This document shows, in pieces, positions 3,096 to 39,348 of a stretch of 64,000 bases of DNA (positions within the stretch are counted from its first letter, which is position 1; each line of letters opens with the position of its first letter). The position numbers and the translations under genes were made by a program. This stretch comes from Octopus vulgaris (Eukaryota): positions 59,768,001 through 59,832,000 of the forward strand of contig OX597821.1 of NCBI GenBank assembly GCA_951406725.2. The letters run 5' to 3'. The notes below the pieces were generated by a model. That model ran no database searches, had not been told where the DNA came from, and saw only the letters and a list, made by a program, of their open reading frames with translations.

Positions 3096-3959
3096 CAGGG
3101 TACATTGAAAGAACTGTCGTCTAAATTACACTAAAATGAAAATAACACTGACATCTCATTTTAATAGATATATTACCAAAACTACATAAAAACATCTAGA
3201 AATACTAAGGAGTAAATTTATTCAATAAAATCACCATTGGCTTCAACCACGGCCTCCAGAAAACTTCAGAATCTCCTGCAACTCTTCTGGACAGTCTCCT
3301 TGTTTAAATTGCTGAATGTTGCTATAATCCTTGCCTTCAGTTCATCTTTGGTGTTACAAGGAGTTTTGTTGATCTCTCGCCCAACTGCGCCCCACACATA
3401 AAAATCAAGGGGATTGCAGTCTGGGGAGTTAGGTGGCCAGATGTTAGGGGTGATGTGGTCGCAGAAATTGTCTGACAGCCATGACTGGATTCTCCTGCTT
3501 GTGTGGCACGGTGCAAAGTCCTGTTGCCAGACATAGGGTCTTCCAGCAGCCATCCTCTTGAGCAAGGGCAGCCATATCTCCTCCAGACACTTGCTGTAGG
3601 CCTCCGTGTTGAGTCCAAGGCTATGTGGGAAGATGAATAGAGGTATAATGTCACCAGCACTGGTAATCACTCCAAACACCATGATGTAGACTGGATGTTT
3701 GACTTTTATCACTCTTGGTACATGTTTTGGGGACAATCTGTCCTCAGATTGACACAAACACTCTGAAATGCTTGTATTGGAGCTTCTGGCATGAATACCA
3801 AGTAGTACAGCATGTCGTTTCCAAATTTCTGGCAGAGTGAATCACAGCATGGTGCTGTTTTTCTTACCGACAGTGCCCAACTGACTCTACCATAATGTGT
3901 AGTTGACAAAATCAAAAACAAACGTGCACACTCAAAATTGAAATATAAAATGCACCCTA
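3096..3959 (-). mobile_element. maT/DD37D Tc1-mariner element, internally deleted
   Basis: ORF 3266-3757 has WQQD...WPPNSPDCNPLD with 37 residues between the last two catalytic Asp; ends CAGGGT...CACCCT next to TA. Confidence 0.85.
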
Positions 3960-4964: not shown

Positions 4965-5534
4965 TTATCTGTAATATAATATGTGACAATTATTCAGTTC
5001 CCATAATAAAACTCTGAGTTTTGGATGTCGGAGCAGAAACCTGCACCGACATTTCTTTAGTTATTGAAGCAATCAAAATATGCCGCTTTTTAATGATAAA
5101 GTAGGCATAGGCAATCTCATATTTTGTTTGCCTCAATAACTGAAGAGATGCCAGTGTAGGTTTCTGCCCCGACATCCAAAACTCGGAGTTTTATTATGGC
5201 AACCGAATAATTATCACATATTATAAAGACCCCCTTCAGTCATGAATGACCATGGGATTGCACCTAGAAAGTTACCCTCCTAGACACAAGTCCGGGCAAG
5301 GTTGTTTATGGAAGGCCAGCAGTCGCCCATGCATACCAGCCTCCCCTCTCCACGCCACCAGTGTTATCCAAGGGAAAGACAAAGGTCAATACAGCTTGGC
5401 ACCAGTGACGTCGTAACTCATTTCTACAGCTGAGTGAACTGGAGCAATGTGAAATAAAGTGTCTTGCTCGAGAACACAACACGCAGCCCGGTCCGGGATT
5501 CGAGCTCACAACCTCACATATTATCTTACGGATA
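4965..5534. mobile_element. Fold-back element (about 118-bp inverted arms carrying hammerhead-like motifs), interrupted by a SINE at 5225-5514
   Basis: 4965-5082 pairs with 5118-5224 plus 5525-5534; the SINE is flanked by a CACATATTAT target-site duplication. Confidence 0.7.
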
Positions 5535-9747: not shown

Positions 9748-11451
9748 ACACTTCATTTTTTGTAAAAAGTGAGTGTTTGATAAATTTTGTGGACAAGAAC
9801 TGTATTAATCAAACAACTAACCCATAGTAGTTACTAATTTTTCTGATTGTAATCAAGAAAGGAAATTATCAAATATTAAGAGAAAAACCATCTGTTAGTT
9901 TTACAATATTCTTCTGGTATGTTACAACAACAAAGGAGAAATACTGAAAGGTAAAGACAGGCGATGAAAGAAATGTAAAAAGAATATTCATTCACATGTT
10001 TTTCAAAATAAGTTTTGTATGTAGGGTGACACACTTTCAACTATGAAGTAAGAGTGACATACATTTTTTTGGATATGTCTGGCAAACTAAAGATACAAAG
10101 TTATGTACTTTAGCCATTGTTGCAGCTTGTTAGTTCTGGTTCAAATTCTTTTATCTTTTACATACTTCTGTCATTGGTTTGTAGCTATTCTGGGACACCA
10201 CCTTAAAGAGATTTAGTGAAATAAAAAACTTACTCTTTTACTTGTTTCAGTCATTTGACTGTAGCCATGCTGGAGCACCACCTTTCGTCGATCAAATCAA
10301 CCTCAGGACTTATTGTTTCTAAGCCTAGTGCTTATTCTATCGGTCTCTTTTGCTGAACCACTAAGTTACGGGGACGTAAACACACCAGCATCGGTTGTCA
10401 AGCAATGTTGGGGAGACAAACACAGACACACAAATATATGCACACACACATATATATATTTATATATACATATATACGACAGGCTTCTTTCAGTTTCCGT
10501 CTACCAAATCGACTCACAAGGCTTTGATCAGCCCGAGGCTATAGTTGAAGACACTTGCCCAAGGTGCCACGCAGTGGGACTGAATCCGGAACCATATGGT
10601 TCATAAGCAAGCTATTTACCACACAGCCACACCTACACCTATTTCTGTACTTATTCTTTAAGTCTGGTGTTTATTATATCAATATCTTTTGCAGACCCTT
10701 TAACCCTTTAAATTATGGGGATATAAATAAACAAATACTGGTTATCAAGCTGTGGGAGTAACACACACACACCACCACCACATAAAAAGCACCCAATACA
10801 CTCTGTAAAGTTGTTGGTGTTAGGAAGGGCATCAACCTGTAGAAACCATGCCAAAACAGACAACTGGAACCTGGTGCAGCTCCCCAGGTGGCCAGTTCGA
10901 TGTCACATCATCCAACTCATGCCAACATGATGTTAAATTATAGTGATTATGATGATGATGATATGATTGGCTTCCATGCAGATTCCATCTGCCAAATTCA
11001 TTCACAAAGAATTGATGAGTCTAGGGCTATAGTAGGCAGCACTTGCCCAAAGTGCCATCCAGTGGGACTGAACTAGTGCAGGATTAACCATTACACAAAA
11101 TAAGCATGTGCTTTGGACATCAAAGGAAGTGGAGTACCACAGAAATATTAAATGGTTTACAACTTAGCATCAGCATGCAAAATAAGCATTATTTTATCCA
11201 ACTTACTCTTAGTTTTGTATCATTTTGAAAAATAAAATTTTATTTTATGGTGTATTATTGTTTATATTTTGAATTACGTATATATGGGGCACCAAAATCT
11301 TTTAAGTACTTTGGGCCTCTATAGTTCTTAATCCAGTGCTGGATTGAACCTTGTGGTTACAAAGCAATCTTTTCAACCACACAGTGTCCCAATCATTATC
11401 ATTTTGTAGATCAGTGACTAGTTCTCACTTTGAAAACTATATATTTCGAAC

Positions 11452-11700
11452 AGGAATTTGGCAGTGCCACCTCTAGCCGAACAATTATTCTGTGCTGATG
11501 AAGGGAAATAACCTGGAAATCGCAATACACAGATATTGTTTTAAGCTGGGTGGGGGTGCTAAATGCCCTTGTTCAAAAATATAAGGATACAGATCATGTC
11601 ATATAGCCAGCTGGAGACAATGTCTCCTGGGGCTAAATTACAGCAACATTTGTCCTAAACCAGGACTACCATGTTATGTTGGCAAATAATCTTCATTATC
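11452..11700 (+). mobile_element. Second copy of the retrozyme-like element
   Basis: Shares, in the same order, TTGGCAG, the hammerhead, AGCTGG(G)TGGGGGTGCT, AAATATAAGGAyACAGA, an AGCC...GGCTA hairpin and GTTATGTTGrC with the reverse complement of 27121-27392. Confidence 0.55.
11489..11533 (+). ncRNA. Type I hammerhead ribozyme motif (diverged)
   Basis: UCUGUG-CUGAUGA-a GGG aaauaa CCU g-GAAA-U cgca A-UA-CACAGA: 6-bp stem I, intact core, minimal stem III. Confidence 0.65.
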
Positions 11701-11949
11701 AGTTATGATTATATTCAATATGTGAAGACGCATGGCTTAGTGATTTAGGCATTCGGCTCATGATTGTAAGGTCGTGAGTTCAATTACCAGCGACGTGTTG
11801 TGTCCTTGAGCAAGACCCTTTATTTTACATTGCTCCAATCTACTCAGCTGGCAAAAATGAGTAGTACCTATATTTAAAAGGACCATAGTTAACTATCAGT
11901 ACTTCCTTATAGCCTGACACCATAATAATATTACATACGCAAAAGTGAT

Positions 11950-12275
11950 TATTATTTTTATTATTATTTTACTTCTCAGAGCTCTCAGTCTTACTTGCTC
12001 TGGTTGATTCTATGAGAGCAGACAGTAACCTTTTGGTAGAGGTTTCAAGGGTCTCTTTCTGCAAATTGTAAGCTTTGGTACTTAGATGTTAACTTACCAT
12101 GGAAGACACTCAACACCCAAGCACCAATCTCAAAATCCTAGCTGTTCTCAATAGAGCGTTTTTTTGGGTCTGCTCTGCCCTCATGTCAATTCCAATTTCT
12201 CCAACATATTTTTCAAACTTGGTTGTTTGTGCTCTGAGTGCTCCTACAACTACTGGGATAACAGTTATTCTCCTT
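11950..12275 (-). mobile_element. R4/Dong-like (REL endonuclease) LINE 3' end
   Basis: Minus strand TVIPVVVGAL...QKNALLRTARILRLVL* followed by a TAA-rich tail. Confidence 0.65.
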
Positions 12276-14711
12276 GTTTTGAGTGTTCCCTATTATTATC
12301 TAAAGTGGCAAGCTGGCAGAACCATTAGCACACCAAGCAAAATACCTTGCAGTATTTTGTCTGCTGCTGTTCTGAGTTCAAATTCCACTAAGGTCGACTT
12401 TACCTTTCATCCTTTTGAGGCCAACTAAATAAGTACCAGTTACGCACTGGGGTCAATGTAACGATTTAATCCCTTCCCCAAAATTTCAGACCTTGTGCCT
12501 ACAGTAGAAAGGATTATTATTATTGTTGGTGTTATGGCAATGAGCTGGCAGAACCCTTAGAGTGTCAGATGTATGTTTTGCTTTAAAGGATCATTAGCAG
12601 AAAGGATCATTATTATTATGGCAATGAGCTGAAAGAATGATTAGCACGCTAGACAAAATAACTGGTGGCATTCCTTCTGGCTTCATATTGTGAGTTCAGA
12701 TACTGCCAAGATTGATTTTGCCTTTCAATCTTTCAGTGTTGATAAAATAAGTACTAGTTGAGTATGGAGGAGGGTGATGTGATCAAATTCCCCCTCCCCT
12801 CAAAAAACTGTTGGCCTTGTACCAAAATTTGAAACCATTATTATGATAACAATAACAAGGACAGTGGATTGTCAGAATCATTAAAGGGCGGCGAGCTGGC
12901 AGAAACATTATGTTCTGAGTTCAAATTCCGCTGAGGTCAACTTTGCCTTTCATCCTTTCGGGGTCGATAACTTAAGTACCAGTTACACACTGGGGTTAAT
13001 GTAATTGATTTAATCCCTTTGTCCTCTCTGTGTTTAGCCCCTAGCATGGGTTGGATGGTTCAACCTGGATCTGGAAAGCCAGGAGGCTGCGCCAAGATCA
13101 GACTGGAGCCTGGCGCAGCCTCCTGGCTTCCCACACCCCAGTCAAACCGTCCAACCCATGCTTGCATGGAAAACGGACGTTAAACGATGATGATGATGAT
13201 GGGCAATAAAGAAATAACAATCATTAAAGTATCTGGTCAAATGCCTTATGGTATTTGTTCTGCTACATTCCAAGTTCAAACCCCACATGGTCAAGTTTGT
13301 CTTTCATATTTTCAGACTGAATAACGTAAAGTACCAGTCAACTACTGGGGTCATTAGTATAGACTAATCTCTCTTCCAAATTTCAGTCCTTATCTAAGCA
13401 AGAAACATTAATAAAGCTATTAATATTTTTATAGCTGTAAGGCAGTGAGCTGGCACAAACATTAGCACGCTGAGCGAAATGCATAGCAGTATTCCGTCTG
13501 TCTTTATGCTCTGAGTTCAAATTCCGCCAAGGTCAACTTTGCCTTTCATCCTTTCAGGATCAATAAATTAAGTACCAGTTGTGTACTGGGTCGATCTAAT
13601 CAACTGGACCCTCCCCCAAAATTTTGTGTCTTGTGCCTAGAGTAGAAAAGAATATTTTTATAGCTGTACTATAAGTACCATTTGAACACTGGGGCCAATG
13701 TAATCAACTACCCTTTCCTCCAAAATTTCTGGCCTTGTGCCAAAATTTGAAATCAATACTTTTATGGCTGTGATTACATCATTTATTGGTTCTTAGAAAA
13801 TTCTGAAATGATTTGCTCTTTTCCACAAAAATCTATTTGTTTTTATACACTCGTAACATTTATAACAATCATCAACAAGTTTGTATTGTCAGTCTAGATT
13901 CTAAGGTAAAATACTTTATGTAAAGAATTTAAGAATATATAAGTCAATAAACAAACTTGGTTACGTGTTCTTAAGCATATATTTATTCAGCTTTCTAAAT
14001 AAAGTTGTGTTTAGTTTCAGTGAAAAGGTATTGATTTCTGGGAAACATTTCAAGTTTAGTTAAATGTATCTAAGCTCAGAAACTGCGCCTTCTATGTCTA
14101 TTTTAGTTATTTCATCAGTCTCCTCAAAGTCACTCGAGTACTTTATGTCTAAACAGTTTTTTACCCCTACAGAGGCCAGTTGTGAGAATTGGTTCAAGAT
14201 GACTCAACAGAGTTTTCTCAGATTACCACCTTCATATATTCAAAAGAAAGGAATGTTATGTTTCTGATAAATCCTCTTTTATTGACATTTCTCTGTGCAG
14301 CTGCTTGTCTTTCTCAAACAGCAACCAAATCTCATCTCATGCTCTCTGACTTTAAAAGAGGAAGGTATACATTGAATAATGTAGTCTTGGACGTACAGTG
14401 GATTGTCCCATTGACTTCAACATATGAGAATCCACCAACCAATATTATAACTGTTGGATTACTTACACAAATTATTTGTTTTCAGTGGTGAAAGCTTATG
14501 TATGACCAACTACACATTTCGGAAGTACTGATAGCAGAACATTGGTGCAAACGTTAGTCACAAGCTTGATGAACAACATATCTTAGGCTGTTTGCTTGAA
14601 CTCGACATCTACTTAGTTAGTTGCCTTCACCACAGCTTAAAATCCAACACACCTGCACAGGTTAAATGCACACCTGGTCATCAGACCAGAAATTTAAGTC
14701 CTAAAGCATGC

Positions 14712-14758
<47 letters not shown>

Positions 14759-14826
14759 TATGTGTGTGTATATATATACACACACACACATACATACACT
14801 CACACACATACACACACACACATACA
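14712..14826. repeat. (TA)n/(TG)n/(CA)n compound microsatellite; similar tracts occur throughout (e.g. 3960-4020, 17710-17765, 56775-56823, 58120-58161)
   Basis: Seen directly in the sequence. Confidence 0.95.
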
Positions 14827-17268
14827 TAGTAGTTGTCACTTGGTTTTTGCCCTGGTTTAAACTGTACTCAAATGTATTCATAAGACATCTATCATAATGG
14901 CCATGTGTCAGAGTGCATTTAAAGGCTGCTTGTCACCACACTTCCAACTCAACTTGTTGCTCTGATGTTTCCTGTTCTCTGGAGCAAGCATTTTTGGCTG
15001 CATCACTTTGAAGTTTTTCTGTTAACGCCTGTTATCTTAAGTGGGCTTTTCTAATCGCTTGAGACTCTAACCTCTGTTGTTTCTGCTCTGGTGTTTCTTG
15101 TTCCCTCAAGCAAGCTTTCCTGGTTGTTTCAAATTGAAGTATTACTTCCTGCTGCTCTTGTGTCTCCATGGCATTTTGTTGCCTCTGATATTGGAGTCTG
15201 TCCTGCCTTTCTTATTTTTCCCTAGCCCTTCAGCTTCCAGAGTGTCAGGCTTCAGATGATTGAAAAGTGTTATGCTCTCTTCTATGCATCATATTGAATG
15301 GTCTAAAATAAAATATCTGAAAAATCAAAAATAAATCCCGTTACATTTAATTCATTTTATTTATTTATTTTTTTGTTTCTAAATTCATTTATGTATCTTT
15401 ATTTCATCCAAGTATCAAGCTTCATATAAATCGGTCCAGTGTAACAATTATACTTTCTATAGATACCATCAAACTTTCACAAAATGAAAATACAATTGCT
15501 TCAAATCATAGCACATGTAACACGAGGAATGTTCAAATTATGATATAGTAGAAAAGCATGGAAGACAGACATTAAAAGATGATGATGAGGTTATAAAATA
15601 CTTGGAGGGCCATTGACTCTCTTGAGTTCATTCGCCCTTTGCTGGACCTTATTTTTCCTCTTGAAGGGTATCCAAAAGGCTTGGTGGTGTTAACAGTTTA
15701 GTATTTAATGGCTCAGCCTTGCAACAGGTTGCACTAAGCTACATGTTACCAGTGGCACACAAAAGCAACCTGACATACTTGGCTACATACTGCCTGCAGA
15801 AAAAAGGCATAATTGTCATGGCTGGAAGTGTTTTGATCACATGTCTGCTCAGTCAGTACTAGCTTGGAGCTAAACAACAATCTTTTAACCTTGACTTGGC
15901 ATTTGTTCTTTTTTAGTCTGTGACACACCTCCCCAGATTCCTCTACTATGAGCTACCAATAAACTTTAGCAAATTCCACAACAATTTGCTACTACTACCT
16001 TCATATCAAACCAATCCTGAAATGCCCTTTTAAATCTGTCAGATGTGTCTCCACATTTTTCTTTTGATCGGTTAAAACTAAAGAATATCATTTTTTTCTT
16101 TTTCGGTGTGGCTGTATGGTTAAGAACCTTGCTTTTCAAACCATGTAATTTTGGGTTCAGTCCTACTGCACAGCACCTTGGGGAAGTGCCATCTATTATA
16201 GGTGATATTTGTTGACATTCCCTGTCCTTTAGTGCTTATATTTTTGAAGACAAGTGGAATAAAAAATTCCTTACTTGAGAAATAGTTACGGGTTAACAAC
16301 AGGAAGGGTATTTGACCATGAAACAATGCCTCAATGCTAGGTCTTCCTCAAACTCATGCTGACATGTAAAAATATGTAAAATGAACCAATTAACTAACAA
16401 TTACCACAAAGTACAAATTGCAGAAAGGATTGTCACTTGGATGTAACATGTTTTTAAAATGCTTTGATAAATAATAAATGCGCCCTTTTAAAGCCTAGCC
16501 AGGCTCATGGGACCGGTTTCCCAGTGTATGTGTTCTCCAGCTGGACGGGACGCTAGTCCTTTGCAGCGTTACTCATTTTTGCCAGCTGAGTGGACTGGAA
16601 ATGAAGTGAAATGAAGTGTTTTGCTCAAGAACACAACACGTCGCCAAGTCCAGGAATTGAAACCACAATCTTACGATCATGATGCTGACACCCTAACCAC
16701 TAAGCCATGCGCCTCCACTATTAACTAATTAAAGTTGATAAAATAGGAACTAATAATATATTAAGGCTTATTTTAATTACTTTCTTTTACCTACATTTAC
16801 TTGTTTCAGTTGTTGGACCATGACCATGCTGGAGCACTGCCATCAAGAGTTTAATCGAACAAATTGACCCTTGTACTTGTTTTTCATAAGTCCAGTACTT
16901 ATTCTATTATTGGTCTCTTTTGCCAAACCACTTAGATGTGGGGATGTAAACAAACCAGTACCAGTTGTCAATTAGTATTGGGAGACAAACACACACACAC
17001 ATTCACACATGTATATATGACAACCCTCCACATAGTTTCCAAGTACCAAATTCACTCACAAGACATTGGTCAAATCAGGGCTTATAGCAAAAGACACTTG
17101 CCCAAGGTGCTGCACAGTGGGATTGAACATGAAACCACAGGGTCGCAAAGTGAGCTACTTAACCATGCAGCCGTGTCTGTGCCTATGAATTATATTAACA
17201 TCTTAACCTCTTTTATTGTCTGTAGCTGAATGAAATCATAATTAATTGAGTTTTTGTATTTATTTCAG

Positions 17269-17454
17269 TGAGCCAGAATATCAAAGACATGAATTTAATG
17301 GATTATGGTATGTGGATAACTGTCGTGGTTCTGCATTTATTGGCAATTGTTTGGGCTGTTGTGGCTGCTGGATTTACATTGTTCAATTTATTTGGTAAAC
17401 CAATAGAGACTATCACCGGACCTTTTGGTCTCTACGTTTGGAATGGGTGTGCTG
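17269..17454 (+). CDS. CLRN: Clarin-family tetraspan membrane protein, internal exon
   Basis: TTTCAG acceptor, G|GTAAGC donor; transmembrane segment followed by FNLFGKPIETITGPFGLYVWNG, which resembles the clarin KP.ET..GP.GLY signature; paralog identity unresolved. Confidence 0.88.
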
Positions 17455-17706
17455 GTAAGCTTATCACTTTATTGCTTGTTGTTCAAAGTTCCAAAGTTTC
17501 AATATGTAAAATGTTCGTTCACTCACACACATTTATAACTCAATAAACTGAAAGCAAATATGAATTGCAACTACTTCGCTGCTAGTCATTCATTGTGCTG
17601 AAGTATTCCCATGACCTTATGACAAACAATTCATCTCGTAATCTCTCTTATCTTTGATTTGTTTCAGTCATTGAACTGTGGCCATGCTGGGGCAATGCCT
17701 TGAAGG

Positions 17707-17752
<46 letters not shown>

Positions 17753-20304
17753 CACACACACACATATCAAGAATTTAATTTAAGAACAAACATAGAATTC
17801 AGGTTAACAAACTTTATATATCCACGCTTCTACACTTCATTACATATAAATGATACCATGGGTTTAAAATGTTAAAAAAAAAACAACACCAGGTAAAAAT
17901 ATAAAATACACAGGATCCACCCAGAAAACATATATAAAATTCAACTAAAAATTATCTAAAAAAGATTATTACAGTAAGTAAATCGACTAAAAATTTAAAG
18001 AGAAAAGTATATAAAATAAAGTTATACCCAACCATGAAAATTATATATAAAATGTAAATGTCAATATAGTTGTAGTCCATGATAATTGTAGGAGCATGAT
18101 ATGAATCCAATTGGGTAACTAATCTACATCTTCACGAATCATTCCAAAACATCCAACAACAACATATATTGTGAATTCTCTTGTCACTTCGATGAATGAC
18201 GGTTCAGCAAGACACAAATGCCCAGCATTCTGATACTGAAAAGCTGCTCTATGAATATTATTGTAGTGGGCATGGTTTATGCAGATCCAGTCCCATACTC
18301 GTGACCTTTAGTCTTGTATTGGTCTGATGCAGTAAATGCTGTGAGCCCAGTAGTTATTAAGATGCAGGATTTGTATGGAGTTTTCTTCTCTTAGATGTGT
18401 GGCTAAAGAGCTGAAAGGTTTCATCTGCCTTGAGTCTACTGGGCTGCTTGTGACTGTCTGTCTTTTGGAGGCAATTCCATGACATGTTAATTAACCTTTA
18501 CCTGAAACCCTGATAGGGACTACTACTTAGGGTCAGAAGAGACCTAAGAACAAGTGTGGCTAAGAGGTGGTTCCACACTTCTCAAAACCCTGGAATTTCT
18601 GAAGCAGGGCCTCACTACTGGATCCAGTATTAAGTCACACCCAGAAAAAAATATTTGCATATACATAGACACAGGCGTAGCTGTGTGGTAAGAAGCTTGC
18701 TTTAAGGTGGCGAGCTGGCAAAAACGTTAGCACGCCAGGCGAAATGCTTGGCAGTTCTGAGTTCAAATTCCGCCGAGGTTGACTTTGTCTTTCATCCTTT
18801 CGGGGTCGATAAATTAAGTACCAGTTACACACTGGGGTCGATGTAATCGACTTAATCCCTTTGTCTATCCCCTCTATGTTTAGCCCCTTGTGGGCAATAA
18901 AGAAATAAGAAGCTTGCTTCCCAACCACATAGTTCCAGGTTCAGTCCAACTGCATGGCAACTTGGGCAAGTGTCTTCTACTACAGCCTCGGGCCGACCAA
19001 AGCCTTTTGAATGGAGTTAGTAGACAGAAACTGAAAGAAGCTCATCATACATATGTGTGTGTGTGTGTCTGTTTTTGTCCCTCCACCACTGCTTGACAAC
19101 TGGTATTGGTGTATTTACATCTCTGTAACTTAGCGATTCAACAAAAGATACCAATATAATAAGTACTAGGCTTAAAAGTCCTAGAGGTGATTTGTTCAAC
19201 TAAAACCCTTCAAGACCGTGCTCCAGCATAGCCACAGTCAAATCACTGAAACAAGTAAAAGAATGTACTGGTCAAGTAAGATTTGGGTAAAAACCTTGTA
19301 GTATGCTATGCAAAGCATGGCCATAGTTGTTGGCATCATACAGCAGGAATGATCCTGCTACTGGATATACATCAAGAATTCCATTGTATCCAACAATTTG
19401 ACCTCTTTGAAAGTTCGATAGATCTGTCATTTAATGAATTTTAATTACCTTTTTCTGATGGTATCTGAAAAGAAACAGCAGTTTCAGCAAAACATTAAGC
19501 AACACTAATATTAGATAAAAAAAATATGAAAATGAACAAGCTTTTGCTGGTTTTATAGATATTTCAAAATTTTGATGCTATGTGTTTCCATTAATTTCTC
19601 CAACACCTGTATATCATCATAATCACCATCATTTAACGTCCGCTTTCCATGCTAGCATGGGTTGGACGATTTTGACTGAGGGCTGGTGAACCAGATGGCT
19701 GCACCAGGCTCCAATCTTGATCTGGCAGAGTTTCTACAGCTGGATGCCCATATATATATATATATATATATATATCAAAATTTCTTACCCCCCCCCCACT
19801 ACTGCTTGACAACTGGTACTGGTGTATTTACATCCCTGTAACCTAGCAGTTCAGTAAAAGAGACTGATAGAATAAGTACCAGGCTTTAAAGGTATAAGAG
19901 CTGGGATCAATACATTTGACTGAAAGTTCTTCAAAGCAGTGCTCCAGCATGGCCACAGTCCGATGACTGAAACGAGTAAAAAGAGAAAATAGCACTAGTG
20001 GTGCTCCAGCATTAGGGCTGAAACATGTAAAAGAATATAAAAAAAAAAGTGAGTCAGGATATAAATTTAAAATTTTGTAAACAGTTCTCAGCTTGCAAAG
20101 TAGCTAAAATCTCTATAAGAAATGCAGGTAGTAACTCTACTGAAAAGGTTCTGTGTCATTAATGAGCTGGAGGAGGTGCCCTTTTGGGGTTAAAAAAGAG
20201 TAGTAATATTGTTCCGTATGGAACAGCCATGTTAAAGTGGTAACAAACATTACAGTTCTTAGCTTCTTTATTTAATTATTTCTTTTTTCTTTCTTTTTCT
20301 ACAG

Positions 20305-20570
20305 CATCATTCACTCTGCTTTCAATTGTGATCTTTCTCGTCCTCTTCAAAACAAGTATCTACGACAAAAATATCTTTGAACAGGCTGAAATTAATACTG
20401 GGTGGAGATCTGTTGGACTCTCTCACCCAAGCTGGTCATTTTATATAAACCTGGGAGCCCTTGGGTGTTTCCTACTCAATATTTTGTTGCTCAAGATATC
20501 AGATGTGAGACCTTGTCGCCCCAGACTTACAAAAGAAGAGAAAGCAACACAAGATGATTTTATATACTAA
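20305..20570 (+). CDS. CLRN: Clarin-family protein, last coding exon (...SWSFYINLGALGCFLLNILLL...DDFIY*)
   Basis: Long polypyrimidine tract plus ACAG acceptor; phase joins the previous exon (G|CA); two transmembrane segments; C-terminal D.hY like the clarin DLMY tail. Confidence 0.88.
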
Positions 20571-20841
20571 ATATTCACACTATTTTCTGTATTCAGAAGC
20601 ACTAATACTCTTTCTTTCTGGTCTAATCATGCCAAAAGAACTCAGGAAATATTACTGTTAAATTACTATTGTGTTTTGAAAAAAAAAACTGTCTCAGTTT
20701 AATATTTACTCTTAGCGTTCATTGCTACTTGTAACATTAGACTATATAACTTTCCATCCACACATATTTCTTCCTGTTATTCTTAGACTTCTACTTTCAC
20801 AACTTCCATTCATTTCATTGTAACCATGATTATGTTCCATC

Positions 20842-20882
20842 AATAAATTGTATGCTTAAAGTCTTTTGGTAAATTAAATAAA
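20842..20882 (+). promoter_or_regulatory. Candidate polyadenylation signals of the clarin gene
   Basis: AATAAA at about 20842 and 20877, roughly 270-310 nt after the stop. Confidence 0.5.
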
Positions 20883-22613
20883 GACAAACTCATTGTATTT
20901 TACAAAATGTATTCTTTTAATGTTACCTTGAGAAAACTTAGACAGAGAGGAGAGGGACGATGCTTTATTTACTAAAAAGTACAACTTTGGAATTAGCGAT
21001 TCCTTCTTGGAATCTGCCCCACTACCTTCTTGCTTACCTTAACCTCCATCTCCTACTATAAAGCTTAGGTTTTATTGTCTTGTGAGGTCGCCAGGCTGCT
21101 CACTAGTGCCAAAACAGACTGAACGACAATCCATTCGATCCTGTTAAACCACCCAACCCATGCCATCATGGATCGCAGATGACTTCAAGTGGAACCCTTC
21201 TGTAAGTGAGCACTAACTGTCCTTGTTGGCCTACTCAGGTGAAGTGTACAGACTAAGGGGCAAAGTGCTTGTTACCCAGAGATACCTGATATTGGATATG
21301 GAAGTGTTTCCAACATTGCAATGGATTTAGAAGAGCTTGCAAAACCTCTGAGTAAATCCTGCAGTTTCTGCATGGGTCAAAGCATTTCTGACGCTTATTT
21401 CACCTTCAGCTGTTGATGCTTTATCAACTCTGAAATGGAAGCGACCAAAATGAGAGTCAATTACTCCAAAATATGTTTTCAGCTTTCAGTGTATCTGATG
21501 TGTGATTTTCTTTGCCAGTTTCAGTCAACCTCATATGCCGTAGAAGATATTTTACCCAAGGTGTTGCAGAGTAAGTTCAAACCCAGAGTGACATATCACA
21601 TACCCATACCCTTTAGATGTAATTTTTAAAAATCTGTTAATAGCGTAGTTTTAAATGAGCTTACTTTTATTTGTCTAGGAGTACTATACCTTTGCTAAAA
21701 ATAGCAGTTAAATATCTCTCAACTCAAACATGTCTTACAACAATGGATACATTCAGTAATGTGGTTCTAGACAGCGCTAAAAGAAAATGGGATGGCCATG
21801 GCTGGAATGAAGGTTTTTCAGTCGAGGTGGACTGGCAACTGACAACACTACAATCAACAGAATCTTGATATTAACTAGGGAATCATTTTTTACATCAATT
21901 ACTCATTTCTGGTCAAAAATAAGGCATTTTATAACCAATACCCAGAACGCAGGAATCCGGTGTCCAAAACTTTCCCTAAATTATTTCCATCATACATAAG
22001 TTAAAGGAAATGGAAACAGTATAGTCCACTATTGAATGTTGATTTCTGAAGCATCAGATAGGAAAGCTATTCCAAGGGAGGTAATAAAGGCCATCAATAT
22101 GAATTTACCAGTTGTCTTCCCATTAACTAGTTTGCAACATTTCTGATATTCCTACCCTCCTATACTGGAAATATCTTGCTATGTATAGGCCATAGAAAAA
22201 GGTCAGCGTTTTTTATTAAAAGCATTTCACTACAAGCAGTAATGCCCAATGGAAGAAAATGAACGTCACTCACACATTTAAGTCCAGAAAAGAAAATACC
22301 ATAAATTCTTTCATTATTATTTTCCCATGGCTGGACATGTTCTCACAGAATATTCAAAATGAATAACAGCTTGATAATTGGAAATGAGTGTCAATTATAT
22401 AAAGCTGTATTAAAACAGGGACACACATAGGGTGTTCATAAATCCTTTTTACAACTTCCACAATTTATTGCATTGTACCATCCAGATATGTTGCATGCAA
22501 TCAATAGGCCCTATGTGGAAGTGTTAATATTTCTAATAAAATTTTGTTTTCCAATAGACTCTTTTTGAATTTTTCTAACTGTAAAGGTAAATTTATGGAC
22601 ACCCCGTATAGAT

Positions 22614-22649
<36 letters not shown>

Positions 22650-23169
22650 CATCATCGGAGAACGGACGTTAAACGATGATGATGATATATATATATATAT
22701 ATATATATATAATAATAAGAGTAAATAATTTCTATAATGGTTTTTAAAAAAAGACCACAATTATTTACTGGTAGAATTCGGTATGTAAATATAGCCGATT
22801 AACAGTAGGAACTTCTGTAAAGTTCAGTATATATATTGTATATAAGAAAAAAGGGACAGGCAACAGGTTGCTTGACCGCATACCGAAAAAGTAGAAATAG
22901 CAGTCAAGAATGCTTATTTCTATTTTCCACAAGTGGGGCTCCACACACGACAAACCCTGCAATTCACATATGCAAAACAGAAGGAATATATATATAGATT
23001 AAAGTAGAAATTTAAAAAAAACTGTTTGGCATCATTTGAATAAGACAATTTAGAATAAGAATATAGATATACAGTCTCTTGCAGATGTTTCTAGAATAGC
23101 CAACATGTGGATTATCATACTGCACTCATAGTACATACTTCAAGTCAGTTGATGAAAATTCCTTACAAG

Positions 23170-23739
23170 TGATGAGAATCAAACATCTAGTCAACATCAT
23201 GGTGTTTGAAGTGATCTCTAATGATGGCAACATTCATCTTCCCACCCAGCCTGGCTCAACATGAAGGCCTACATCAAGTACCTGGAGGAGGTAGTGCTGC
23301 CCTGAGTCAAAAGGGTGGCTGCTGGAAGACCCCTATGTCTGGTAACAAGACTGTACCATGGAACGTGAGCAGATCCCAGCCATGGCTACCAGACAATTTC
23401 TGCAACCACATCACCTTAAACTCCCCAGACTGCAACCCCTTTGATTATTATTTGTGAGGTGCAGTTGAGCAAGAGACCAACAAAACTCTTTGTAACACCA
23501 AAGATGAACTGATTATGGTAGCATTCATCAACTTACACAAGGAGACCGTCCAGAAGAGTTGCAGGAGATTCCAAAATCATCTGGAGGGTGTGGTTGAAGC
23601 CAGTGGCGATTTTTCTGAATAAATTTACTCTTTAGAATTAAAATATTTTTATGCAATTTTGGTAAATATATTTTAAGATGAGATGTCTAAATTACACAAA
23701 AATGAAAATAACAGACAACAGTTTATTCACCACACCCTG
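23170..23739 (+). mobile_element. Second, more decayed copy of the DD37D element
   Basis: NSPDCNPFDYY motif; nucleotide match to the reverse complement of 3096-3720; ends CACCCTG-TA. Confidence 0.8.
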
Positions 23740-23745
23740 TATGTT

Positions 23746-23799
<54 letters not shown>

Positions 23800-25619
23800 G
23801 GTTTTAGGAAAGGCATCCAGCAGTAGAAACCATGCCAAAATAGACATGGAGCCCAGGCAGCTCTCCGAACCATCCAACCTATGCTGGCATGAAGAACAGA
23901 CATTGAATGATAAATATGGTGTGAAATTCTACAAGTTTTTTTCAATCTGTTTATTTTGTTATTCTTTTCTGTTGAAGAGCTTATGCTCAAAACATAAGCA
24001 ACTTCATTTTCTCCGAACGTCAAACTAATATACTTGCTTGTTGTTCATACACCTGTCTTCTTGCTTTTCTATAAATTTCAACATTATATTCTTTTACTTA
24101 TTTCAGTCCTTTGACTGCAGCCATGATGGAGCACCACTTTTAGTCAAGCAATTCAGCCCCAGTACTTATTCTATTGGTCTCTTTTGCCAAGCCACTAAGC
24201 TACTGGACATAAATGAGGTGATAAACCTCTTACATTCAGATAGACTCCACGTCCTTACAAAATGAGGCACTAAGCCTCTTACCTTTTTGTTTCCAAAAAA
24301 GGAATTACAATTCGAGGCATTAAAGCCTCTTACTTCCATGCCCAACTAGGCACACTGCCTCATTCAAGCACCTGGACAGTGCCAAGTCAGGACATTTTAG
24401 TAGAAATTTAAATATGTCCTTGGGGAAGGAGTTCATTATCCTGCACAAGTCGGTTTACCCTACGACCGCTGCAACCACCTGCGAAGGCCAATCAGGGCCC
24501 TCAATGCAGAACAGAACCCCTTCCCTCTGGCTTTATATTCTCACCTTCTTTACGAAGTTTTCTAAAGCCCCTCCCTTGTGAGGCTTTAAACAACTACAGG
24601 CAGACAATTTGCCAGGAGCTCAGTGGAGATTTCTTATTCGGCAAAATAAACACGAGCAACAAACCCCCAATGAATCCAAGAAAAAAAAAAAGTCTTACCT
24701 GGTAATTGTGCTTCACTTGTTCAATAATTCACGACATTGCATTGCTAGGAGTCATGACACCAAAGAAAACACTGACCAACGCATGCGCAGGGAAGAAGCA
24801 AGCTTCTTACCACACAACCACACATCTATACCTATATGGCAGGCCTCTTTACAGCTTTTGTTGGCCTGAGACTATAGAAGACATTTGCCTAGGAATCTTC
24901 AACTACAGGCCAAAGAAAGCCAAATTTTAAATAGCACAAACCTGTTAATGAATAGTAAATTACGTTGTCTAAAATCAGATGTTTTCAAATCCAGTACAAA
25001 GATACTTATCTCAACTAATATCCTGGATGGATTATCTTTAACATCACAATAGAAATATAGAATTCAGTTAATCAAAGGTATTCTTATCCTCTGCACTCAA
25101 TAAATGCAAGAGATATCTAATGTGTTTGAACTGAATAACTTCAATGCTCAGCTTGATGCTAAAGACAATTCTCTCATCTCACTGGCATCTGTGTGGCAAG
25201 AAGTTTGCTTCACAACCACGTGTTTCTGGGTTCAGTCCCACAGTGTAGCACCTTGGCAAGTGTCTTCTATTATAGTCTCAGGCTGATCAAAACCATGTGA
25301 GTGGATTCAATAGACAGAAACCAAAAGAAGCTCATTGAGTGGGTGGGTGTGTTTGTTCACCAGCATCACTCAACTATTGGTGCTTGTGTGCTTATGTTCC
25401 TGTAACATAGTGGTTTGGCAAAAGATTGATAAAATAAGTACCAGGCTTACAAGAAAAAATTCTGAGGTCGATTCATTTGACTAAAAATTCCTCCAGCTAG
25501 TGCCCCAGTATGGCTGCAGTCCAATGACTGAAACAAGATATAAGAATATCTAGTTAATCACCACTGCAAATGTTGAAAAGGCCCATTATTTATACAATCT
25601 CGTATCACCACCATTTTAA

Positions 25620-25826
25620 CCCTTTCCTTACTGTATTTATTTTGAGATGCTCTGTGTTTCTTTCAATTATTTTAAATATAACAAAGAAAAATAACTTAGT
25701 TATGATTCAGCTAGTGTTTGGAACATAACTTGTGACTAAGGTTTGGTGGAAGATTTTAATTCAAAACTTATGAAAACAAGACATTTTACCACAGAGCCGG
25801 AGCCAGGTTAGTAACAAAAGGGCTAA
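25620..25826. mobile_element. Second piggyBac-type MITE family; another copy at about 1624-1852 inside a SINE
   Basis: TTAA-CCCTTT...AAAGGG-(C/T)TAA ends; the two copies share internal sequence. Confidence 0.7.
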
Positions 25827-27120
25827 TGTCCCCTTTTCTATACCTGCATAGGTTAGATAGAATTTGTTTTGATATATGGAAGTTTCAAATTGAAGAAAAT
25901 ATCTCAATAAAACAGTCTGACTTATGCATAAAAAGTGGATGTTAAAATGACAAAAGCATCTTAGCATCCAGCTGCTAATTTGAAAATTAAAAAAAAAATC
26001 AAGAATTACATATTAGTTTACATTAAATGAGAAAAATCAAACCCAACAAATTTTAGCACATATTTATTACGGAATTCCAACAATTTGAGAGATAAGAAAA
26101 ACCAGTTTTCTTTCTCAAAAGTCCAGAGACAGTCAGACACAGACAGACAGACAAAACAAGTGTAGTTTACTTGCCACATTAACTTACAACAATAATTGCT
26201 ATAAGTAAATATTACAAATTTTAATGTTTTTCATTAATTGAACATATTTTGCTGAATTGGAATAACAAGAAAACACCTCAAATATCAATTAAGAACAATT
26301 ATTTTGTTTTCCACTATAACGCAATGAAAGAAATGAAATGATCAAATAGATAAGTTACCGAACTTGTCTCGATGTGATTTCAAATTTCATGCAATTTTAT
26401 ATGAAATGTGTGTGTTGTTTTTTTTTTTAGGTAGTGGTGGCTGAATACTCAGATGCATTCTCATTTGCTTCAGTTTAACCAAGTTGCTGTGGGTTAGGGT
26501 ACTTAGATTTCAAAGGAAAAGTCAATACAGTTGACCCTCCATGATACCCAAGTGCAGTTAAGAAATGTTAGACATTGGATAAATAATTTTATAGCACAAT
26601 AGTCACAGCTGGCCAGAGAGGGGGGAGCTTATTGGTTAAAATATCACTAATTCATGCTGATTATATCCAAGAAAAAAAAAAAAAAAATCAACTCGTATTT
26701 ACACAAACTTCAAGATGAGTGAAGGTGTCAGTGGCTATGCAGATAACAATGTTTTTTTTTTAGTTCAAATATGTTAATATTTACACAATTTATGTACATC
26801 AGTTCCTTACACTTCATAAATTAATAAAAGGAAATGATTCTGAAAAGAAATTCATAATACTTTGTAACAAAATTACATGTTGAAGGATTTACAAATTACT
26901 TGAATGTGATGCAAGGCTAGCTGGTTTTTTAAAATTTATTAGAAAATTTCTTTACATGATGGCTACTTTATGTGTAACAGTTTCTAAATATCCTAAACAG
27001 TAATATCAAGATAATTTCACAATATTACAGAAAATCCTGGCAAATATCAAAAAGTTAAATTTTATCAAAAATAATTTTAATTTTAGAAATATTGAATTTC
27101 TAAATGTCTCAAAGAGACAT

Positions 27121-27392
27121 GAGCAGTGGTGGAGCGATAGAGTGGTTGTATACTGTCAACATAACGTGACAGCCCCGTAAAGGGAATTACACCACCGCTT
27201 TATAGCCCTAGGAAGCATCGACGCTTCCTGTCGGCTTTGACACATTTTCTGTGTCCTTATATTTGCGAAGGGGAGGTAAGCACCCCCACCAGCTAGGACT
27301 AGCAACCTGAAGACATGCATGTTTCTGGGTCTTGCCCGTCATCAGTTCAGGGTAGCAAGTCCTGCTAGTTGAGATACCTGCCAAGCCTTCAC
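27121..27392 (-). mobile_element. Retrozyme-like, hammerhead-containing non-coding element (about 270 bp)
   Basis: GC/CpG-richer island in AT-rich DNA containing the hammerhead and several hairpins; homologous to 11452-11700. Confidence 0.6.
27306..27351 (-). ncRNA. Type I hammerhead ribozyme motif
   Basis: Minus strand reads CCUGAA-CUGAUGA-c GGG caaga CCC a-GAAA-CAUGCAUG-UC-UUCAGG: 6-bp stem I (imperfectly extendable to about 20 bp), intact core, palindromic stem III, UC cleavage site. Confidence 0.8.
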
Positions 27393-28616
27393 AATTTTAA
27401 TTTTGTGGAGTTGAAATTTCTTATTTAACATCCCTGAAAATTATTCACTCTTAAACTAAAATAAAGTAAGCATTTAAAACGGGAAAATATTTGCATCGTT
27501 TATAACTAATAATACTCTGAGAAGTTTCATTTTATAATAATATGGGCACATTTACTGAAATTAAAAGTTGAGCAAGACTTAATGACTCTTGTTATATTCT
27601 TTTCAAGAAAAACAAATCTGGAAATGTGAAATCAGACTAAATTACTCACAAGTTAAATTTATAGATAGCTTAAAAGTTTCCAAGATAATCAAGTGGATTT
27701 GTTATAAAATTGTTTCCATTTCTTGAGCGATTGAATTTCATCTTCCAATAATTTACAGATATTCCAACAAAAATTCATTAATCTAATTTAACTTTGAAAA
27801 TTAAATTGCAACTAAAATCTCATCCCATTTGAAAGGCTTCAATTGTCCAAGTTGTGGCAACAATTTGCTTTTAGATATAAATTTCATGAACTAAATAAAC
27901 ATGAAAATTTACTAGAAAAGCTCTAATTGATTTCATTGATAAATAGCTTTTACTAAAAAAATTATTTACATTAAAAATATATATATAAAGATGAATGATA
28001 ATGGTGTGAAAAGTTTGAATTTAAAAAAATTATGGTTCTATTCATTTGTTTGATGAAAACTTTGTAAAGATACTAGAAAAATATCCAAGAAATATTCAGA
28101 GAAAAACCACATTTGTTCTGAAAATAAATAATGTGATTCCAGAATTATAAGAATAAAAAGCCATACCTCTTCAACATTGATTCATATCACAAAATAATTA
28201 AATTCCAGCCAACCCACAGAAAGGGAGGTTCTACTGACTGTTATATTCTTTTGCCACCTGACATAGATTTAGTTAAGTTAAAAAATATATGAAGCTCTAA
28301 TAGTTAAATAGATGGTGAGTCTCCATCAAACATGTATTTAACTAAATATAAGATCATACATTGATAGTAAAATTTTCATTTCTAACCGACAACATGATAA
28401 AATGAAAGAAACAAAAATTTTTTACAATTCAATGAAGAACATAATTGAATTTCCAAATAGATGATTCTTTTGATTCTTTGCTAACGCAATACTAACATTC
28501 CACACAGCACTTATGTAATAATGACGCAGTAATACTTTTTCCAATAAGTCGTTTTATATCTTTCAGCAAACACTCAAACACACACAAAAATGAATATTTT
28601 AGTGAATCTGTAACAT

Positions 28617-28754: not shown

Positions 28755-30204
28755 CTGCAACATAAGAAATAACTTATTAACTACAATTTAGAATTAGCTG
28801 CATTAAAAACTACTTTATATATATATAGCACTTACATAGCATTACATTCCAACTTGGGTCTTCTGGATACCAATACCTCTCATATATCATCAGCATCGTT
28901 TAACATCCGCTTTCCATGCTAGCATGGGTTGTCCTCAGTCAAATCGTCCAAAGCGGACGTTAAACAATGATGATATGAGAGGTATTTGTATCCAGAAGAC
29001 CCAAGTTGGAAGGTAATGCTATGTAAGTGCTATGGAAGGACCATAGTTAAGCTATCAGTTCGATTATGATACGAGTGAGGAGTAATGTGGATCTTGTATG
29101 AGCATGTTAAATATATTGAGACAACAAAGCAAAAGCTGTGTGGAATTTTCAAGACATTTGTAAAGAGAAAGTCTTACAGCTGTTTCTGGGATATCCCTTC
29201 ATCAGAGACAATGTGAGATGGTTAAATAGAGAGAAATATTTGAGTTCAATATAAGGAGTTATTTTGGAAAAGGAAGGAAATAAGGAGTATATAGGGAAAT
29301 AGGAGAATGGATGTAGAAAAAAAAGAAAAAATTAAAATATATAAAGATGTTATAGTTGCAGTTCTATTATCCAAGGAAAGTGGTGTGTAGAAGTGGTAGA
29401 AATGCTTCTTGTCTGTGGGATGTAAATTCCAATAGGAGTTCATATTTTGTCGTTACAAATGGAAAGTGTAGAGATGAAAATTCCATGTACTGTTCATTCA
29501 AAGGGGTCTTGTGGTGTGAATGAAAATTTGAGAATGTAGTGGTAGTATTTAGTGGATAGAGAGGGGAGAATCATCATCATCATCGTTTAACATCCGCTTT
29601 CCATGCTAACATGGGTTGGACGTATGACTGAGGGCTGGCAAACTAGTTGGCTACACCAGGCTTCAATCTTGATCTGGCAAAGTTTCTACAGCTGGGTGCC
29701 CTTCCTAACGCCAACCACTCCGAGAGTGTAGTAGGTGATTTTACGTGCCACTGGCACGGAGGCCAGAGAGCCGCTCTGGCAATGATCATGTTAAAATGAA
29801 GAGAGAGGTCAAAAGGAAATGGTGAGAAAAGAAGGAAAGAAAGACGAAGAGAAAATGAAAACTAGAAAATAAGACAAAATATTAAAGGAGTGTTTGTTGG
29901 TGATCAAGATAATATGAGGGGGAGACGAGAGAAGAGTAGGGGAGGGGTAGGAAGAGATAACAATGTAAGTAATGAATATAATGAGGTGGGGGTGATGATA
30001 TGTTAGAATGGTATTAAGGGATGGGTACAGAAAAAGGTATAGGGGTGGTTCTAAACCACAAAACAGAAGGGAAGAATACTAAGAATGGTCAAGTTTCTAT
30101 ACATAGACTTATGTCTATTGTACTGGCTAATGTGATAGTGTGGGTAGAGGAATCAGAAAGAAAGAAGTGTACATTGATATACGCACACATGCACAAACAT
30201 GTTC

Positions 30205-39200: not shown

Positions 39201-39348
39201 CACCTGATTTTCTCCCCTCCATACACATACAAGCATGTATCTGACTCATACATTGTTCGCTTTCCAGACATTTGTACATTACTGCATATATTTTATACGC
39301 ACTTTCTGACAAGTTGTGGTGCACCTGAGCACTGTATACAATAATTTC

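Follow-up and report, generated by a model that had tools for sequence, protein, structure and literature searches.

The stretch of Octopus vulgaris DNA considered here (the window: 64,000 nt, positions 59,768,001 to 59,832,000 of the forward strand of contig OX597821.1, assembly GCA_951406725.2) carries two diverged repeats with a hammerhead-like motif, and it raises the question of what kind of element they represent and how an element without a protein of its own is copied. An earlier note, made from the letters of the sequence, regarded them as one possibly undescribed retrozyme-like family with selection on RNA structure. The repeats belong to a protein-free element of ~350 nt with a conserved fold and a predicted hammerhead, which is likely copied in trans by the reverse transcriptase (RT) and GIY-YIG endonuclease of Penelope-like elements (PLEs) from a multimeric or, somewhat more likely, a circular RNA. 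Mobilisation by PLEs is the very probable part of this reading; for a circle as the template the chances are about even, slightly ahead. The element is a further member of an already known class, the non-LTR (long terminal repeat) retrozyme type.

Noncoding units and their common fold

The relationship of the two copies in the window was confirmed by nhmmer (E 3.8e-14), BLASTN (70.5% over 95 nt) and a descriptor scan. Both are 5′-truncated pieces of units of ~350-356 nt and not full elements, and they represent not one small family but two subfamilies, A and B, with thousands of first-look candidates each in the assembly searched (2.80 Gb, 227 contigs). Subfamily A gave 2629 such candidates (40 scored, full-length matches 84-94%) and subfamily B 2980 (40 scored, 89-95%); the two consensuses are ~59% alike. 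Subfamilies C-H were found through relatives met in other loci; for G there were 505 first-look candidates, the best at 80-91%. The superfamily thus includes at least eight subfamilies (A-H) of ~350-nt noncoding units with consensuses 51-76% alike, the closest pairs being A/E (76%) and D/F (74%). Full unit lengths, taken from tandem arrays, are 350 nt in A, 356 nt in B and 350-362 nt over the subfamilies, H being recovered only up to the first 3′ end and G without the 5′ hairpin. The GC content of the units is 41-46%. The statement of the earlier note that there is neither an open reading frame (ORF) nor a tRNA head holds: the longest ATG frame measures 20-74 amino acids (aa) across the subfamilies, no tRNA gene was found in the window at the default score, and matches under relaxed settings agree between subfamilies neither in position nor in strand or anticodon. 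Nor do the loci examined show a unique internal region framed by repeats, as an LTR structure would have.

Abundance was estimated with a four-family profile in 80 evenly placed, content-blind stretches of 10 kb. Twelve stretches matched (12-13 insertions), and the reversed sequence gave no matches. The density of ~15 per Mb corresponds to roughly 40,000 insertions genome-wide (Poisson range about 22,000-73,000). These are mostly 3′ fragments, about 2-4 of the 12 extending to the ribozyme. No description of this superfamily was found in the papers searched on retrozymes and hammerheads in octopus and cephalopods; the units may stand as ‘unknown’, as short interspersed nuclear elements (SINEs) or as Penelope in Dfam, in Repbase or in the repeat library of O. 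vulgaris, which were outside this search. In the passages searched of the O. vulgaris repeat paper PMC13282606 and of PMC8967140, ribozymes are unmentioned.

The predicted fold is common to all eight consensuses. It opens with a 5′ hairpin and a rod of ~140 nt that carries the hammerhead at its tip; a GGACAC/GTGTC hairpin, an AGCC...GGCT stem, a multi-branch (four-way) junction and a last hairpin follow. The fold score of the alignment is -114, as against -33 ± 4.6 (best -45) in 100 column shuffles that preserve the gap pattern, conservation and phylogeny. Strictly supported double changes were found in 36 of 89 pairs, compared with 5.7 ± 2.2 (maximum 12) in the shuffles. This strong covariation, which comes from eight lineages, some with shared ancestry, and is not an R-scape test, points to a fold kept by compensatory changes. 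The selection on RNA structure that the earlier note supposed from two copies is thereby supported across eight subfamilies.

The hammerhead core and its three stems are recognisable in all eight subfamilies. The sequence of stem I varies, yet it pairs in 8/8, including the UCUGUG/CACAGA and CCUGAA/UUCAGG pairings noted in the window. The GGAGAC/GTCTCC and AGGAAGC/GCTTCCT hairpins inside AGCC...GGCT, also noted earlier, are supported by fold z-scores of -4.5 and -6.3 for the two regions (equally stable shuffles 0/200 and 0/100). In the core of subfamily C, U3:A8 stands in place of C3:G8, a swap described for PLE hammerheads as well (PMC4209133). The consensus core reads CCGAGGA in H and CTGATAA in E, which the decay of CpG sites in old families may explain. 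Six subfamilies have a fully palindromic stem III (A, B, C, D, F and, by alignment, G), and E and H miss the palindrome by one or two changes; amphibian retrozymes with a palindromic stem III cleave as dimers (PMC7229834). The stem II loop is A-rich and 5-6 nt long, and a TATA-like tract lies at unit positions ~33-42. The Rfam hammerhead models had no match at E<=1 in the window, nor at E<=5 in four loci; the ribozyme is therefore called from the descriptor and the covariation. Matches to Rfam microRNA models were microsatellite-driven and below the cut-off, and they were rejected.

Insertion marks and a possible route of copying

The insertions were analysed in the 98 best-scoring A-D loci (100 minus two duplicates), chosen by similarity to the query. 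The search for tandem arrays proposed in the earlier note was productive: 41 of the 98 copies exceed one unit, each of them head-to-tail, with up to ~3 units and 1082 nt in the longest. An adjacent inverted arm is present in 42/98 and (TA)n at the end in 46/98, and the 5′ ends are scattered. Target duplications measure 8-15 bp; duplications of at least 8 nt in non-simple sequence accompany 29/98 copies, with 5.4 expected (maximum 9; 30 mismatched pairings). Two 3′ end sites, separated by ~55 nt, are in use: E1 lies within the junction, in its AC-rich 3′ part, and E2 past the last hairpin. In subfamily B, 29 of 30 copies stop at ~300-305 (8) or ~354-3 (21). Among the 59 inverted insertions of A-F, both ends could be classified in 44, and the arms end at opposite sites in 42 of these (Fisher p 1.4e-7). 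The content-blind sample shows the same two 3′ ends and TA targets. Neither poly(A), nor a simple-repeat tail of the element's own, nor a fixed start was seen in the loci examined.

For PLEs, insertions with incomplete tandem units, an inverted copy next to the element and a one-sided tail have been described (PMC8557442, PMC3846280); their tail spans the distance from one internal start site of reverse transcription to the other (PMC11167929). Since the insertions of the superfamily carry these PLE marks, the element is likely copied by PLE enzymes. The marks, which are absent from the earlier note, name the likely mobilising machinery. An autonomous-type PLE insertion met at L093:733-3983 has a ~27-nt tail on the inverted arm and none on the forward arm, the same rule as in the noncoding superfamily, in one case.

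The copies start at any phase and run across the predicted cut site. No pile-up of 5′ ends at this site was seen; five D copies start 6-18 nt before it, which the query can explain. Because copies cross the site and reach ~3 units, a once-cut linear monomer cannot be the template, and an uncut multimer or a religated circle is left. Non-consensus bases are shared by the tandem units of one insertion more often than by separate loci (1.2 vs 0.6% in A, 1.1 vs 0.3% in B, 0.8 vs 0.1% in C), that is, 2-9 times more often in A-C, with a control that is not exactly matched; subfamily D has 0/151 such sites. The even chances allowed to a circle come from these shared variants and from the retention of the core over deep divergence.

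It can be supposed that copying would begin with the transcription of an array of 2-3 units. Adjacent hammerheads would pair via the palindromic stem III and cut out 350-nt monomers, and a host ligase would close them into circles. The PLE protein would then bind the conserved 3′ domain and cut an AT-rich target by two nicks, one in each strand and 8-15 nt apart. One complementary DNA (cDNA) would begin at E1, and E2, which lies 55 nt downstream, would serve as the start of the other. If one cDNA were kept, as would usually happen, a 5′-truncated copy would result; if both were kept, inverted arms would be joined, one with the tail and one without it.

Penelope-like frames, RNA reads and rival explanations

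The genome contains many PLE ORFs, including long open RT + GIY-YIG frames, some of 781 aa. The presence of such frames speaks for mobilisation by PLEs, as does one RT + GIY-YIG frame that shares a (TA)n tract with a dimer of the element. A cysteine motif ahead of the nuclease points to the Neptune clade, as characterised in PMC8557442 and not by a tree. The end repeats of the sampled PLEs bear other minimal hammerheads. One PLE (L091:1-5172; G000:C16:20835000-20842000) is apparently full-length: its period is 4787 bp, its 385-bp end repeats are 99% alike, a separate 359-aa frame precedes the 781-aa RT/GIY-YIG frame, and its minimal hammerhead is of the U3:A8 form. Near-identical 781-aa PLE frames are numerous in the genome, which suggests recent activity.

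Several observations weigh against the proposed reading. A terminal repeat resembling the unit was absent, by the eight-family profile, from 60 GIY-YIG loci (59 of them clustered into 16 groups), so that no autonomous partner was found in this sample and the link to PLEs is drawn from the insertion marks. The hammerhead is atypical, with a 3-bp stem II, a 10.1:11.1 mismatch in 6/8 subfamilies, an AUA triplet in A and no Rfam match, and of the Xenopus retrozyme dimers 1/9 cleaved (10.64898/2026.07.22.740005). The PLE of the anole used mainly uncleaved RNA as a template in vitro (PMC11167929). The A, C and D queries held one particular 3′ end, which biases the ends of forward arms, not the site in the inverted arm, and homogenised source arrays also fit the shared variants. 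The RNA data are in line with these points. Three raw RNA-seq runs of one study, perhaps from another species, were aligned to the subfamily A monomer only, ~6% of each run being read, and gave 1930, 1607 and 1493 reads. The two strands are equal (the strandedness of the libraries is undocumented), the depth peaks in the 3′ part as in truncated genomic copies, and 59-66% of the aligned reads continue into unlike sequence. No pile-up of read ends, at the predicted cut site or elsewhere, was present in the three runs, in libraries of a kind that may not reveal cut ends. The pattern looks like passenger transcription and not like an abundant circle. End-to-start joints occur in 13, 14 and 18 reads on both strands and are expected from genomic tandems as well. 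Among the runs aligned, subfamily A reads appeared in those of two organisms only.

As a separate observation, A>G (24-29 places) and T>C (13-15) changes dominate the RNA reads of runs X21-X23 at L012:1114-1463, where contigs of X1 show 6 and 5. With RNA and DNA unmatched, this excess may stem from A-to-I editing at inverted copies or may mark a diverged subfamily.

The same absence of a circle-like signal from the three runs would be expected if PLE enzymes copied an uncut linear array transcript, the hammerhead only trimming transcripts or needing the PLE protein, and no circle being formed. This explanation, which appears possible though distinctly less probable than an even chance, agrees with the shortness of the arrays (~3 units at most), with the weak stem II and with the normal insertion of hammerhead mutants of the anole PLE, in which cleavage requires the protein (PMC11167929). 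It is opposed by the core, whose retention in lineages of only 51-76% similarity, together with a compensatory swap, implies use in every cycle, by copies that begin at any phase and cross the cut site, and by the variants shared within arrays of A-C. Moreover, ordinary paired-end RNA-seq may miss small circles. A dependence on long interspersed nuclear elements (LINEs), as in a SINE, or a DNA-level satellite, with the hammerhead-like motif incidental, is largely refuted and very improbable. The genome is rich in SINE-like repeats, and LINEs also produce 5′ truncation and target duplications; the superfamily, however, has no tRNA head, fixed start, poly(A) or simple-repeat tail of its own, and it uses two alternative 3′ ends in opposite arms. 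The same 3′ sequence stands in both arms, unlike in L1 twin priming, dispersed copies have target duplications, and the covariation extends to the catalytic core.

The case that the earlier note named as fatal to its reading, a pseudo-LTR (pLTR) of a Penelope family, was looked for and was not encountered in any copy examined. That the copies are 5′-truncated 3′ ends of autonomous PLEs outside the sampled ones is improbable. All insertion marks are PLE marks, pLTRs bear type I hammerheads (PMC4209133), and the sample covered 150 of 6136 GIY-YIG candidates, with no Naiad-type elements retrieved; such elements have been reported in Octopus (PMC8557442). Against this, each of the 41 copies longer than one unit runs into the previous unit and never into an ORF. 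The first 102 nt of B as a query gave 30 loci (13 seen before), of which 25 run into the previous unit and five stop at its start, with no common upstream flank. No ORF joined to a unit was found in 98 + 60 + 30 loci (13 of the last 30 being those seen before) or in the 60 GIY-YIG loci, and none adjoins an element in the 12 content-blind insertions. The eight-family profile matched three of the 60 GIY-YIG loci, each a separate insertion. The nearest candidates were a copy ~400 bp after a decayed PLE ORF on the same strand (L321) and a copy 1.3 kb after another PLE ORF (L121), and they speak for a pLTR by their position; sister copies of both PLEs lack the unit, and the PLEs of L210 and L098 show end repeats of their own. 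Three short conserved motifs compared with the PMC8557442 supplement gave one chance-level match, to a squid Naiad.

Other candidates were also rejected. The dimer at L290 abuts a truncated PLE ORF and had been considered as a template-switch chimera; a (TA)n tract separates the two, so this locus represents two insertions in one target. PLE fragments flank the copies at L101, L117, L037, L053, L267 and L314, as well as at L321 and L121, mostly downstream or on the opposite strand, and none makes the unit a repeat of that ORF.

The window and comparison with known elements

The descriptor, applied to either strand of the window, recognised exactly two folds of the type I hammerhead, with cores at 11495 (+) and 27345 (-). 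Copy 1 is 94% identical to the A consensus and copy 2 is 97% identical to the B consensus. The earlier note placed them correctly, and their extent was underestimated: the real elements are longer, each with a target duplication (Table 1). All three copies in the window are 5′-truncated. Stem II of copy 1 has 3 bp with an A.G mismatch at its base, and its stem III loop, palindromic AUCGCGAU in the family form, bears one change. In copy 2, stem II has 3 bp with a C.A mismatch and stem III is palindromic ACAUGCAUGU. As a correction to the earlier note, copy 1 has AGCTGGGTGGGGGTGCT, and most A copies carry AGCTGAGT. Outside the window, a 1146-aa open frame with endonuclease- and RT-like parts was noticed at L210:159-3596 (-), which we take to resemble an L1/Tx1-type LINE.

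Table 1. Copies of the superfamily in the window, their predicted parts, and other repeats and frames
Feature	Positions	Strand	Description
Copy 1, subfamily A	11403..11693	+	Unit positions 1-291 of 350; 3′ end at the upstream site E1, no tail
Copy 1 hammerhead motif, type I	11489..11533	+	Stem I 6 bp, CUGAUGA, GAAA; predicted cut after 11527
Copy 1 TAGCC...GGCTA stem	11604..11635	+	GGAGAC/GTCTCC hairpin inside
Copy 1 target duplication	11393..11401 (left), 11693-11701 (right)	+	TCATTATCA, 9 bp
Copy 2, subfamily B	27083..27394	-	Unit positions 43-354 of 356; 3′ end at the downstream site E2, tail present
Copy 2 hammerhead motif, type I	27306..27351	-	Stem I 6 bp, CUGAUGA, GUC triplet; predicted cut after 27312
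Copy 2 AGCC...GGCT stem	27204..27236	-	AGGAAGC/GCTTCCT hairpin inside
Copy 2 conserved multi-branch junction	27122..27199	-	Closing stem AGCGGTGGTG/CACCACTGCT and inner hairpins; E1 (~27137) within the AC-rich 3′ part
Copy 2 tail	27083..27136	-	~55 nt, separating the preferred 3′ ends E1 and E2
Copy 2 target duplication	27393..27404, partner 27073-27084	-	AAAATTAAAATT, 12 bp
Third, older copy, subfamily G	20146..20255	+	5′-truncated, 3′ domain only; ends near E1; hammerhead gone; profile E 4.5e-16
Open frame	38494-39207	+	237 aa, no Pfam match; presumably resembles the C-terminal part of a CR1/L2-type LINE protein
DDE_3 transposase match	3266-3841	-	Below cut-off (E 5.5e-5); probably decayed Tc1/mariner
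Many dispersed SINE-like families	e.g. 45413-45502, 18684-18865, 2082-2263, 55946-55998	both	
Near-perfect long inverted repeats	4975-5225, 28847-29010		108-nt arms at 89%; ~160-nt hairpin; possibly fold-back or like miniature inverted-repeat transposable elements
Direct repeat	36560-37274		239 nt, 97%, 476-nt spacing, inner 38-nt tandem; recent local duplication or small LTR-like element

The retrozyme-like reading of the earlier note stands in that a noncoding ~350-nt hammerhead repeat in short tandem arrays fits the sequence definition of a non-LTR retrozyme; a circle signal in the RNA reads did not appear. Like the animal non-LTR retrozymes (PMC7229834; 10.64898/2026.07.22.740005), the superfamily has a unit within 150-450 nt, one type I hammerhead, a GC content under 50%, no ORF, tandems, target duplications of more than 4 bp, a palindromic stem III as in the dimer-acting amphibian motifs, and co-occurrence with PLEs. 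Mussel retrozyme units of 350-390 nt are near its unit in size. Among the retrozymes described in these sources no cephalopod example was found, though published motif lists may include some. Unlike them, the superfamily forms short arrays and mostly dispersed 3′ fragments without the ribozyme, and its eight lineages keep one multi-domain fold outside the ribozyme. Cleavage and circles have been demonstrated for published retrozymes, whereas in the superfamily cleavage is predicted and circles are possible. The enzyme moving animal retrozymes was a hypothesis in PMC7229834 and was argued from co-occurrence and pLTR homology in 10.64898/2026.07.22.740005; here the PLE link is argued from insertion marks, and no pLTR homology was found.

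With the endonuclease-bearing PLEs (PMC3846280, PMC8557442, PMC11167929, PMC4209133) the superfamily shares 5′ truncation, incomplete tandems, an inverted copy alongside, a tail on one side only, AT-rich or (TA)n targets, a TATA-like motif and a type I hammerhead, including U3:A8; PLE target duplications are 8-10 bp. Two internal reverse-transcription starts near AC-rich RNA are a further likeness (PMC11167929). It differs from PLEs in a unit without an ORF, a tail of ~55 nt compared with 30-40, and a sequence that has no relationship to the end repeats found in the sampled PLE families of this genome. Non-autonomous Chlamys PLEs, e.g. MRC1 of Chlamydomonas, are likewise ORF-less, multicopy and head-to-tail with PLE-type ends, but their 3′ end is generally similar to that of the autonomous partner (PMC8557442), and here no similarity to a partner was found. 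The PLE clades with an N-terminal endonuclease lack canonical hammerheads according to the same source, in contrast to the unit described here, which has a hammerhead motif.

In this superfamily the insertions themselves bear the PLE signature, and the rule of opposite ends (42/44) is a quantitative genomic counterpart of the two in vitro start sites of the anole PLE. With a small ORF-free fold known from eight diverged lineages, the choice of RNA and start sites by PLE proteins becomes testable through mutations made helix by helix in the in vitro PLE assay that already exists. In this genome the superfamily also provides inverted double-stranded RNA in abundance. More tentatively, it may represent a lineage of long standing, made up of circular RNAs the size of viroids, which lives as a parasite on Penelope enzymes through its shape and nothing else. 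The conserved 3′ junction would mimic the binding site of the protein without sequence homology and would bring each of the two active sites of a dimeric PLE protein to a start point of its own, one for either nicked DNA strand. If this is true, the PLE ‘tail’ would be explained, and a structure recognised by a PLE would for the first time be mapped by covariation.

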